A stretch of DNA of 64,000 bases from Candidatus Bathyarchaeota archaeon (GTDB lineage: Archaea > Thermoproteota > Bathyarchaeia > Bathyarchaeales > Bathycorpusculaceae): positions 576,001 through 640,000 of the forward strand of contig OY970280.1 in the NCBI GenBank assembly GCA_963715865.1, written 5' to 3'. This document shows, one piece after another, positions 14,025 to 20,478 of this stretch. Both the position numbers and the translations under genes were made by a program. A model generated the notes under the pieces. That model was not told where the DNA came from. It made no database searches and saw only the letters and a list, made by a program, of their open reading frames with translations. Numbering within the stretch: position 1 is the stretch's first letter; every line of letters starts with the position of its first letter.

Positions 14025-14059
14025 TACCTGATTATTTTGATTATTTTGATTTTAAAAAA

Positions 14060-14075
14060 TAAAAAAAAGGGAGTA
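14060..14075 (-). terminator. Oligo-U terminator candidate downstream of the MCP
   Basis: Minus strand reads ctcccttttttttatttttt about 30 nt after the spliced MCP stop at 14105. Confidence 0.45.
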
Positions 14076-14104
14076 AAGTTTTTGTGCTTTTTGTGCTATT
14101 GCGT

Positions 14105-15093
14105 TTAGCTTGTTAGACAGTTCGTAATTTTGGCTATGCATTCACCGTTCGTGATTACCGGCGCGTATCTTGTCGTTAAAATTGGCTTAACAAGTTCTTT
14201 GCTCTTGAGCAATTCAACATCAGTGGTCAATGGGCGTTTTAATTCTCTGGTGCTATTGAGGAACAAGCCTGTTCCTTATGGCTACCATCTAAGAAAAATC
14301 CAAGCGGCGCTTGCACTTAATCATAAAAGGCTGCTATGGTTGCCTTCTGATTAATATATGCCGCGCTTAGGTTTTTGCCCGTACTGATGCAATACACTGT
14401 ACCCGCAGGCACAACGTTGCTCCAGCAAAGTTCCCATTCGCCAAGCATCTGCATTGGTTTCTGGGTAATTGGGCTGATAACGTCGTGGTATAAGCTGTAG
14501 TTCGGCAAGTTTTTGATGTCTCGTTTTTGCACTGGATTGCAAAGTATCGTATCCATCAGGAAGTCAGCTTTATTGATTAATGCTTCTGCATTATTGAAAT
14601 CTTCCATACCAGGCGTGCCTGCCTTCGTGAATTCAGTGCCTGTGACAGTGATAGTTTTGCCTGTGCAAGCGTTACTGTTTGCTCCTGGGCATGCCAGATC
14701 AATGACGCCTGAGCAATCTAATTCGATTTGGAAGGCCAACCGCCTCGCAAGTCTTTTGAGTTGCTGGTTAATCACTGGTAGGTCAACGTCTTCAACGACT
14801 TCCTTGGGGATTTCAACGGATTCGCCGCGTTTATACGGGCTTATGGTAACGTAAGACATCGGTGTATAGTCAACTGGAACTGCAGTGCCAGGCGCGATTT
14901 CGCTAATTCCCGTGCTTCTTACACCTGCTTCTTTAACGTAAGTTTTTGTCCTTCCAGATTTTAAGACGTCGTCAGTGAACAGCCGCTTCGTTATCAAGTT
15001 TGGCATAGTCAACTCAAGAATTACCTGATGCAATTCGGGGTACTGAATGGCTGCTGAATCAACAAATGCTAAAGCATCTTCATTAAAACTCAT
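14105..15093 (-). CDS. Major capsid protein (HK97 fold), 298 aa, spliced: join(15093..14356, 14310..14289, 14241..14105)
   Basis: Exons 738+22+137 = 897 nt. Spliced C-terminus ...STGKNLSAAY/APLGFFLV/KRPLTTDVELLKSKELVKPILTTRYAPVITNGECIAKITNCLTS*. The unspliced ORF stops at 258 aa inside intron 1. Confidence 0.92.
14242..14288 (-). other. BHB intron 2 in the MCP gene (47 nt, frame-shifting)
   Basis: Central helix UCUU/GAGA, bulges AG^A and AU^U, intron stem UGGU/ACCA with apical AGGAACA/UGUUCCU hairpin, outer helix UUUU/AAAA. Confidence 0.9.
14311..14355 (-). other. BHB intron 1 in the MCP gene (45 nt, contains an in-frame TAA)
   Basis: Central helix GCAU/GUGC, bulges AU^A and AA^G, intron stem UUAAUCA/UGAUUAA, 9-bp exon-exon helix with one bulged C. 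Confidence 0.92.
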
Positions 15094-16646: not shown

Positions 16647-16693
16647 TTTTGCTTTACCCGCCCATAACTTTCAAAAAACGTCTTTCTAGTGCA

Positions 16694-18075
16694 CTAGAAA
16701 GTGATTTTTGTCGGCATTTGCTTTTGATTTCCCTGGTTCTCGCCAAAATTATCGAAAGTAGATTGCTGCGGCTGCTTCAAGTTACCGCTGATCGTTTCTG
16801 GTAAGCCAAGTTCAGCGCGGGCTTCCGTGTTGCCCATAAGCATGCCATTATATAAATCGAGAACACGCTGCATTTTCACGTCTGTCGGCGGCTCCCAAAT
16901 AGGCTTCCACTTCATCCTCGGAATTTTATCCGCAGTTATCAGGCTTTCAGGAAAATCGCCGCGCAAAATTAACGGAAACAACTGCGTCTCGTAAACGCCG
17001 CTTTTGTGTTTTTGGCGCATTCTGAGCCGCGTAATAAATTCCTGCATGACCACTTCCGCAGTTGCTCTATTCGTGCCTTCACTTTCGCCTAGGAATATTT
17101 TGGGTACGCCAAGCTGGGAATCACGCTGCCGCTCCAAATATTGAATCCACCATTCCACCCTAAGATCGCGAGTCATCGAGCCCTGAGGCGTAACCTTGAC
17201 CTCTCCACTCAAAACCAAATCCGTACCTTGATCGCGCTGTGACACTTCGATCCAAAAGCGCCTGCATTTTTTCAGCGCTCCACGGCTGCTGCTGCACCTA
17301 CAGCTCCGTCTCCACCGCATGAAAGCACAAGCATAGGCTTCGTGTAAACCTTCATTATTTTAGCCATATCAACTTGAAAATCATCAATCAAGGCTTGAAC
17401 ATGAAGAATTGAACGTAACGCAGAAGTTCCATAGGCATTTTCAAACCGCCACGATTTAACACCATTTAAAGTCCTGTAAATTTCTTCAGGATCAAAAATG
17501 ACTGGTGGATAAGAAGTAAGTTGAGCATAGCCAAAAATGTTCTTATAGCAATCTTGGCGAATTCGCATATCGCACGGATCCAAAGTTTTCAGCCATTCCA
17601 CGCGGCTTGAATCTTCATCCATGCACGGCTCCGTATAGCTTGAACCAAAGACCAAAGCATCAGTTTCCTCACTGCGCATAGTTGAAAGTAGATCATGCGA
17701 CTCAATCCATTCTTCCAAAAAATCTCGGAAAGTAGCTGTTCCGCCTTCGAGAACAAAGCCGTTAGAAATTGTTAAGATTAACCTAACATCAACGATAGCT
17801 TGAATTCGCGGAGTAAACGAGTACAAAGCCTTGTACTTCGGCAAATCCTCGATTGGAGTAACTCCCCAAATGCGATCCCAAAGCGACGTATAAGGACTGC
17901 TGACAAAGCCTATACCAGCCGCCTTCAAAGTGTAGTTGTTAACGTACTGCATAAGATTCCAGTCGCCGCGCCAAGCCACAGGAACTTCCCTTTCACGCTG
18001 CGCAACGGCTATTTCATTTGGCACGTTACGCAGCGGATTAGGCATAGTCAGCGACAAATCTTTCCTAAGCGGCAT
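16694..18075 (-). CDS. Portal protein, split by two apparent single-base insertions near 17,290 and 17,250
   Basis: Portal motifs (YGTSALRSIL, QLGVPKIFLG, EARAELGL). Frames join as ...GGDGAVGA/QQPWSAEKMQALLD/EVSQRDQGTD if one base is removed at each site. Confidence 0.85.
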
Positions 18076-18089
18076 TTACATTTTTTCAC

Positions 18090-18302
18090 CTACTGCTTTT
18101 TCCTCGGTTTCTTTTCTTCTTCAACGTCGGCGGTTATTTGCAAGTCATCCAAAACAACGTCTTGCATCAAGTCAACACCGTTAATTTTTACGTGCAACTT
18201 ACCCATCCGCACGTTTGCAACTTCAATACCAAGAACCTTAACGATTTCGTCCTTGGCATTTGCAGACAACAAAGTTTTTTCCATTTTAATCATCATCATC
18301 AA
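18090..18302 (-). CDS. Hypothetical protein between terminase and portal
   Basis: 70-aa ORF overlapping the terminase stop. Confidence 0.55.
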   Translation of the reverse strand: MMMMIKMEKTLLSANAKDEIVKVLGIEVANVRMGKLHVKINGVDLMQDVVLDDLQITADVEEEKKPRKKQ

Positions 18303-19630
18303 CTATTTTTTTCCTGATCACTGCGACGCCAACGCCTGAGGAAGGCAACGGAGACCGCGCAGCACCATAACACGCCAAAGCCATGCTCCAGAAGACATCA
18401 TCATGCCCGCCTTCAGGATGACTAAACCGCAAATGCCCCGTCTTCATCAACTCGTACTTTTCAATGTTCAATTCAGCCGTCAAATCAACATCTTCAATCT
18501 TTCGGGCTGGAACATAAGGAATCTTCACTTCACCGCCACGCATCTTCTCACGCAATATCGTGGCCATCTCCTCTTTGACTTTGAACCGTGAAAGTCACGC
18601 CCAGCAACGCCCTGGATTCCGCTGCGCACCATATCCTCAACAATATAGTTGCCAACACCGGTAACATCCGCATACACGGCTCGAATCGTTTTCCAACGGT
18701 CCTGCAGGCTCTTAATGTACCCGATTACTGAAGCATATTCGGTCTTAAGCGGAAAACGGTGAACATGAATCACCCGCAACAACGACCCTTGCTTCTCAAC
18801 CACCAGGACCACACTGAAATCCTGTTCCTTGCCAAAATCTACGCCAACATAAAACTCGCCTTGAGGCAAGGCCTGAAAATCAAGAGGCTGCAAGTTACTG
18901 TCAATACAGGTAACAATAAGGCTCTGCGTAAGCCAAGCATCAACATCCTCAACGAATTCAGCCATAAACTCCCGCTGAAAACGCTCAAACGGCAACTGAG
19001 ACCGCATCTCATCAATAAAACTCTGCTTAACAAGCCCGCTGCGCACAACATCCTCGCAGGTTATAGCATGCTTACTAAAATCTTTGCTCTGACACATACG
19101 GTAAAAAACGCTGTCTTTACTCCAAGGCGTGCTCAGGCGATCAAGGCGCCATCCGTCGTAGATAGCATCGGATAAAGCACATTATAGAAAACGAGCTCAT
19201 CATCCTTGAAGAACGCGCTCTCGTCAGCAAATAACTTGGTGCGCAGTGTAACCCCTGAGCATCTGAGGACTATTAGGCAAAGCAACAATACGCGATACCA
19301 TTCTTGAACCGAACAGTCGTTCTTTGCAACTTATCAACAAGTATCAATCTGCTTTTCTTTCGGTAAGCTCGCCGAGAAAGTCTTGAATGCGATCGGACAT
19401 AATCATGCTCTGCCGCAACAGTCGGCGCCACAATCAACGTCAACGTCTTCGGATAGCGTCAAGCGCAAACCAAATCGCCCTCAAAGCAATACACGTGGTT
19501 TTCCCAGCTTGCCTACTCCAGCGAACACAATCCGCTTGCTCTCATCCCGCAGAAGCTCAGCCTGATAAGCCTTAACATCAAAGCCAAAGAAGTCCCCAGC
19601 AACAAACAAAACTGGATCTTCAGGAGTCAC
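18286..19630 (-). CDS. Terminase large subunit, broken by many single-base indels
   Basis: Reconstructed Walker A region (RWSRQAGKTT), LIVAPTLRQS, Walker B (xDESAF), STPW, and nuclease motifs YVGVDFG and HDDVFW, spread over ORFs 18525..19097, 18286..18567 and shifted frames upstream. Confidence 0.85.
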
Positions 19631-20045: not shown

Positions 20046-20134
20046 ACTCTCTATCTCCCAAAGTTTTTTTTAGGTCTTCACACGTCAATAAAGCCTTCCA
20101 GACCTGTTATTGACGTAAAACAACCCAATTTTTT

Positions 20135-20380: not shown

Positions 20381-20478
20381 TCAAAGGCGGCACAAGAACA
20401 CTACTATAGAGGTCAACCCTGAGAAAAACAGTAAGCCCGCCTTGGGAGAGAGACTTACCGCTTTTCCCAAGGCTGCCT

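Follow-up and report, generated by a model that had tools for sequence, protein, structure and literature searches.

A probable archaeal BHB intron interrupts the HK97-fold major capsid gene of a Bathyarchaeia provirus

The 64,000-nt stretch of DNA analysed here (the window) belongs to a Bathyarchaeia genome that is assembled as a single contig of 2.35 Mb. On the minus strand it carries a head-morphogenesis module in which the gene of interest sits 3' of terminase large subunit (TerL), portal, protease-scaffold and decoration genes. The open reading frame of this gene, 15093..14317 (-), encodes 258 aa and stops at a TAA inside the 45-nt element that we call intron 1. It matches phrog_1650 and, with 24.2 bits obtained on this truncated 258-aa frame, lies below the 27-bit cut-off of Pfam PF25209. 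An AlphaFold model of the 96%-identical homolog P0001 (pLDDT 76) has HK97-type capsid proteins as its best Foldseek matches in the PDB, with E down to 7e-11 and a probability of 1.0. Given these matches and the head-gene neighbours, we therefore conclude that the gene encodes the HK97-fold major capsid protein of a tailed provirus integrated in the Bathyarchaeia chromosome. The nearest capsid homologs come from Bathyarchaeia MAGs and viral contigs. The same host genome also holds a second, intron-less capsid paralog (48% identical, at G000:C1:1706602-1707540), which marks another provirus.

The capsid gene is divided into three exons by two elements of bulge-helix-bulge (BHB) type, the type of archaeal tRNA introns, that lie 22 nt apart; their coordinates, together with those of the predicted splice motif, are collected in Table 1.

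Table 1. Features of the capsid gene (positions in the window) and loci of related Bathyarchaeia viruses with introns at two recurrent sites.
Feature	Position	Strand	Remarks
Exon 1	14356..15093	-	738 nt, codons 1-246, ends ...SAAY; 96% identical to intron-less P0001 over 1-246
Outer (exon-exon) helix, 5' strand, exon 1	14362..14370	-	9/9 pairs with 14309-14300
Central 4-bp helix, 5' strand GCAU, exonic	14358..14361	-	pairs with 14316-14313
Bulge 1, AU^A	14355..14357	-	predicted 5' cut 14356/14355; unpaired probability 0.89-0.95
Intron 1	14311..14355	-	45 nt; MFE fold is a BHB; absent from all homologs; removal restores Y246|A247
Intron stem-loop	14317..14354	-	7 bp + 6 bp, 10-nt loop, 2-nt UA bulge; pair probabilities 0.79-1.0
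In-frame TAA within intron 1	14317..14319	-	closes the 258-aa frame
Central helix, 3' strand GUGC, intronic	14313..14316	-	RNAfold
Bulge 2, AA^G	14310..14312	-	predicted 3' cut 14311/14310; unpaired probability 0.72-1.0
Outer helix, 3' strand, exon 2	14300..14309	-	bulged C at 14306
Exon 2 (micro-exon)	14289..14310	-	22 nt, APLGFFL + first base of Val codon; homolog residues 247-254
Intron 2	14242..14288	-	47 nt, second BHB; central helix UCUU:GAGA, bulges AG^A and AU^U
Exon 3	14105..14241	-	137 nt including stop; C-terminal 45 residues
Introns after capsid residue 28			L178, L193-L196, L207, L072, L079, L114, L120, L123
Introns at residue 253/254			L041-L044, L231-L234, L243, L247

When 14377..14290 was folded with RNAfold, the MFE structure and the centroid were one and the same BHB (dG -26.8 kcal/mol, z -3.2), with 2 of 200 shuffles being equally stable. 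An earlier note on this DNA had read a canonical BHB here: its motif string and coordinates agree base for base with the sequence, the fold that it claimed is the favoured one, and the helices that it described (9 bp with a bulged C, a central helix of 4 bp and a 7+6-bp stem) are all present in the predicted structure. The outer helix, in which exon pairs with exon, is laid out as 3 bp, the bulged C and 6 bp; the central helix consists of the pairs G-C, C-G, A-U and U-G and separates two 3-nt bulges, AUA and AAG, on opposite strands; and the inner helix comprises 7 bp followed by 6 bp. Pair probabilities range from 0.37 to 0.99 in the outer helix, from 0.62 to 0.64 in the central helix and from 0.79 to 1.0 in the intron stem, and the bulge bases are unpaired with probabilities of 0.72-1.0. 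In a 176-nt context the BHBs of intron 1 and intron 2 co-form in the MFE structure (dG -55, z -4.1, 0 of 200 shuffles).

A cut behind base 2 of every bulge in both introns would leave 738 + 22 + 137 = 897 nt, encoding 298 aa. This predicted product is colinear and without gaps against P0001, its closest intron-less relative, to which it is identical at 285 of 298 positions, and the full-length homologs that were read (296-300 aa) pass through both junctions without an insert (...SAAY|APLGFFL|VKRPL...). If the 45-nt cut is moved by one or two bases, a stop, YTP or YMP results; only the predicted cut yields the conserved Y-A-P. Removal of intron 2 similarly restores FFL-V-KRPL, and relatives hold BHB introns at the identical site. 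It had also been claimed that the 45 nt, being a multiple of three with a TAA, would yield a truncated capsid protein from unspliced mRNA; indeed, the reading frame ends at 14319-14317 after 258 aa. The unspliced product would lack model strands 250-256, 261-266, 270-283 and 289-293, i.e. the last four β-strands of the HK97 fold. Downstream of the insertion, codons 247-298 are free of stops and frameshifts, and dN/dS relative to L159, the closest intact relative (83% nucleotide identity), is 0.041, compared with 0.031 over codons 1-246. The capsid part 3' of intron 1 has, on this evidence, evolved as coding sequence. Note that dS to L159 is saturated, at about 1.26, and therefore the low dN/dS cannot date selection to the time after the insertion.

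The host genome encodes the enzymes that such an intron would call for. Two genes for the tRNA-splicing endonuclease (EndA; at L001 1459-2013, minus strand, and L002 1234-1785) match tRNA_int_endo (PF01974), with scores of 100 and 80 bits, and the RNA ligase RtcB is present with 593 bits. Reading by eye, one EndA paralog has Tyr, His and Lys at the expected places of the catalytic triad and the other is without the His, which suggests that the host EndA is of the hetero-oligomeric type, probably (αβ)2. Hetero-oligomeric EndA has been linked to introns in mRNA and to non-canonical introns (PMC2738675 and its references). Host precedents for the cut rule are found both inside and outside the window. 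In the window it also delimits a tRNA intron, 36898-36869, which adjoins an Rfam tRNA match beginning with position 10 of the model. Outside it, about 26.6 kb ahead of the window start, the codon for the catalytic Asp of the host cbf5 gene is split by a 24-nt BHB intron (G000:C1:549340-549363) with an in-frame TAA; the region folds as a BHB, and GGTLDPKVTG is recovered once the same cut rule is applied. The position of this intron matches that of crenarchaeal cbf5 introns (PMC2738675); with the predicted element, cbf5 introns of this kind reach beyond Crenarchaeota to a Bathyarchaeia genome.

A BHB motif on its own is not rare. A loose BHB descriptor had 426 matches in the window, among which about 23 places (counted by eye) are as strong as intron 1, and we rejected the descriptor as a sole test on account of these 426 matches. 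A strict descriptor missed both the host cbf5 intron, which has a 1-nt bulge beside the central helix, and intron 2, with its short helices. The significance of intron 1 comes from elsewhere, because the motif coincides with an insertion defined by homology, because shuffled introns rarely fit, and because the exon codons are tuned. First, the borders of the BHB coincide exactly with those of the 45-nt insertion. Second, when only the intron sequence was shuffled and the exons were left unchanged, the borders acquired a 4-bp central helix together with an inner helix of at least 7 bp in 3 of 1,000,000 trials (3e-6). Third, the exon-exon helix has 9 of 9 pairs, compared with 3-7 (median 4) at the same positions in 64 distinct intron-less homolog DNAs that encode the conserved peptide motif. 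With codons sampled from the 29 relatives that encode exactly NLSAAYAPLG, the probability of 9/9 pairs is 2.6e-4 at homolog codon frequencies; it is 2.4e-3 with uniform synonymous codons. The intron-bearing allele picks the synonymous codons that build the helix, e.g. AGC rather than TCN for Ser. The synonymous codons beside intron 1 are thus tuned to the splice motif, and imply selection for the motif at some time. Rfam at gathering thresholds reports no known RNA family at the intron 1 locus, and no convincing C/D box (sRNA) was seen in intron 1 by eye.

The provirus around the capsid gene is not uniformly preserved. Compared with intact L159, TerL (about 19624-18292, -) is broken into three alternating frames and portal (18075-16757, -) into two, and together the two genes contain about a dozen 1-nt indels within 16757-19624; within each frame the fragments are nearly identical in protein to L159. 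This pattern suggests local consensus (assembly) errors or a very recent inactivation of the provirus. The 1-nt indels in TerL and portal may thus mark a defective provirus or a locally poor assembly, and expression of the capsid gene in a productive cycle may have ceased. These frames, together with the absence of two small L159 genes, could be taken to mean that the 45 nt are a BHB-shaped insert in a decaying provirus, and that the capsid gene is a pseudogene no longer usefully transcribed or spliced. We regard this as unlikely: all three capsid exons are without stops or frameshifts and 96% identical to an intact homolog; the protease-scaffold, decoration and tail genes are intact as well; the near-identity of the TerL fragments in each frame points rather to consensus errors or fresh damage than to prolonged decay; and the tuned exon codons imply past selection for the motif. 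Such a reading would, moreover, bear on the present use of the element and not on its nature.

As to the two L159 genes without a counterpart in the window, one encodes 123 aa and would follow the capsid gene (14058-14088), and the other encodes 103 aa and would precede the protease-scaffold gene (~16647-16650). Upstream of the terminase, two further strong BHB-like hairpins on the minus strand, 20422-20462 (outer helix of 7-8 bp, inner helix of 10-11 bp) and 20076-20117 (outer 5 bp, inner 10 bp), flank the homolog of a 74-aa gene of L159. The former lies in a stretch that aligns with L159 at 87% identity, and is therefore no insertion relative to it; both hairpins may be terminators, processing sites or chance occurrences.

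Close relatives of the gene, 79-96% identical, carry neither intron. For intron 1 itself we found no second instance: there is no break at Y246|A247 among 43 genome loci, ~170 IMG/VR loci and 28 metagenome loci, no intron at this site in a capsid-protein search of 401 genomes of the order, and no match when 100 genomes of the genus and IMG/VR were scanned for the intron 1 hairpin pattern, the hairpin being present as a single copy in the host genome. The viral and metagenome searches used N-terminal-only queries, unbiased by the junctions. In the scan of genomes, one of the patterns spanned the junctions. Looking for an origin in a repeat or mobile element, we found no significant similarity of intron 1 to intron 2 or to any homologous locus compared.

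Elsewhere in the capsid genes of relatives, BHB introns recur at two sites, one after residue 28 (30-62 nt) and one at residue 253/254 (26-664 nt), the latter being the site of intron 2 (site 2). Of 80 viral contigs that were sampled without bias towards the junctions, 14 have such an intron, and so do several genomes; the introns of related Bathyarchaeia viruses listed for these two sites in Table 1 measure 26-68 nt. With the borders placed so that the homologous peptide is restored, all parts of the motif (4-bp helix, two 3-nt bulges, inner helix) are present at 12 of 12 site-2 loci and at 7 of 11 loci of the N-terminal site. The inner-helix sequences vary among the relatives' introns yet remain complementary, with compensating changes in the stems. 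These introns at two other sites give covariation-type support to the view that the capsid mRNAs of related viruses are BHB substrates.

Two introns at the intron-2 site are long, L149:804-1467 (664 nt) and L250:1958-2491 (534 nt), and are almost filled by reading frames of 200 and 159 aa that are 61% identical to each other and contain Cys clusters. The C-terminal region of both has sub-threshold matches to the Hjc PD-(D/E)xK resolvase (E 0.006 and 0.019), and we consider the protein a candidate intron-encoded homing nuclease. The introns at site 2 have also left traces in public protein sets: P0033 ends by running into such an intron, an artefact of its not being recognised, and P0034 has a 10-residue insert that is an in-frame intron translated by the gene caller.

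A different role for intron 1, a regulatory switch, was raised in the earlier note. Splicing would gate capsid production, the 258-aa product would possibly be dominant-negative, and late expression would be tied to EndA/RtcB. The idea can point to the in-frame TAA, at which the unspliced mRNA ends to give a product without the four C-terminal HK97 strands, to the short distance between two introns that must both be removed, and to exon codons tuned so that the motif is kept. Against it, a stop is expected by chance in ~51% of random 15-codon inserts and is found in the host cbf5 intron too. Furthermore, since the close relatives do without either intron, a dispensable selfish element fits better than a conserved control device. 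A regulatory role is possible but unsupported, and we judge the switch as formulated to be quite improbable. We also considered CRISPR escape, by which an intron would split a protospacer, and rejected it; the host has no spacer-like match to the capsid junctions and one doubtful repeat array only.

Could the 45 nt be absent from the real genome, i.e. be an error of assembly or sequencing? The TerL region hints at local consensus problems, and the one public DNA run with related contigs, X1 from peat, contains an intron-less relative only. One X1 contig skips 135 nt with 43 letters between; this amounts to a net skip of 92 nt, or 45+47, so that both introns are absent from that relative. X1 holds diverged relatives only, and is uninformative on the allele of the window. 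A search of sequencing runs for the gene found no RNA run that contains it. The errors of this assembly are 1-nt indels and not structured inserts of 45 and 47 nt; each insert is a complete BHB whose cuts restore the protein exactly; and BHB introns occur in the same gene in independent assemblies of relatives. An artefact therefore seems very improbable to us.

Finally, that the tail INQKATIAAFYD should be real coding sequence, an alternative C-terminus or a translated insertion, has next to no probability, in spite of a length divisible by three and of in-frame introns that gene callers have translated in relatives (P0034), since the tail is covered by none of 35 homologous proteins and ends in a stop beyond which the conserved C-terminal 52 residues lie intact and unreachable without splicing. 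The same comparison bears out the claim of a canonical intron, the full-length homologs that were read continuing with APLGFF.

Taken together, the canonical BHB reading is strongly supported, because the fold, the restoration of the protein, the co-adaptation of exon codons and the presence of host splicing enzymes all speak for it. Very probably, 14355..14311 is a genuine archaeal BHB intron of the capsid pre-mRNA that is removed, along with intron 2, by the host EndA and RtcB; from the sequence we infer actual cutting and ligation on the capsid transcript. In the proposed mechanism, bases of exon 1 and exon 2 would pair in the transcript to form the 9-bp outer helix, and the central helix would arise from four bases of the exon and four of the intron. 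The hairpin of intron 1 itself would serve as the inner helix, and the two 3-nt bulges would be presented on opposite strands. Host EndA, with its two paralogous subunits, probably as (αβ)2, would cut after base 2 of each bulge; RtcB would ligate the exons and probably circularise the intron. Once both intron 1 and the 47-nt intron 2 are removed, the message would encode the 298-aa capsid protein.

Most likely, intron 1 is a selfish or neutral element, recently gained, that persists through efficient splicing. One can go further and imagine that a recent lineage-specific gain of intron 1 testifies to a continuing mobility of BHB introns in Bathyarchaeia viruses, with the virus retuning its synonymous codons after insertion. 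The broad-specificity (αβ)2 endonuclease of the host would then gate the capsid as a checkpoint for host range or lysis timing, and the short introns would derive, by loss of the ORF, from nuclease-carrying introns of the 534- and 664-nt type. As a whole we put this scenario forward as a speculation that is rather improbable.

If the intron is spliced, the virus needs the tRNA-splicing enzymes of its host for capsid production, and intron gain and loss would be ongoing in this virus family, with three sites in one gene and presence that varies between close relatives. If true, this would offer a natural system for following the spread of BHB introns and the way in which coding sequence accommodates a splice motif. 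On the practical side, gene callers mis-annotate such capsid genes as truncated or as having odd inserts, as with P0033 and P0034, and the capsid-based detection and classification of viruses in archaeal metagenomes will be biased as a result.

In the literature searched we found no published case of a viral structural gene, capsid genes included, with a BHB intron. The closest known counterparts are the crenarchaeal cbf5 introns (Watanabe et al. 2002; Yokobori et al. 2009, PMC2738675), cbf5 being, as of 2009, the only archaeal protein-coding gene with confirmed splicing of a BHB intron (PMC2738675). Like intron 1, these are short BHB introns in a protein-coding gene; they are cut by the tRNA splicing endonuclease, in lineages with hetero-oligomeric EndA, and their lengths are often multiples of three. 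The two cases differ in that the capsid gene is a viral structural gene and cbf5 a conserved cellular one, and in that the capsid gene has two introns 22 nt apart, with intron 1 being lineage-specific. Among archaeal viruses, putative introns of 12 bp have been proposed for the rudivirus SIRV1 (Peng et al. 2004, as cited in PMC2738675). They too are short and lie in protein-coding genes; according to PMC2738675, their splicing had not been demonstrated and they are perhaps simply translated. They contrast with capsid intron 1, which has a stop and a full BHB and whose removal is needed for the conserved protein.

With the hBHBh' introns of archaeal pre-tRNAs, those at non-canonical positions included, intron 1 shares both geometry and cut rule; the tRNA in the window has an example at position 9/10 (36898-36869). 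The capsid substrate, in contrast, is an mRNA in which both strands of the outer helix are coding, and the motif would therefore be maintained via synonymous codon choice. Phage group I introns, which are found in T4 td and nrdB and in structural genes of some phages, are self-splicing ribozymes of more than 200 nt that are sometimes tied to homing nucleases. Like the capsid introns, they interrupt essential virus genes and vary in presence between close relatives, and their link to homing nucleases can be compared with the Hjc-like candidate in the two long capsid introns of relatives. The 45-nt intron 1, unlike them, is without a catalytic fold and would rely wholly on the proteins of its host.
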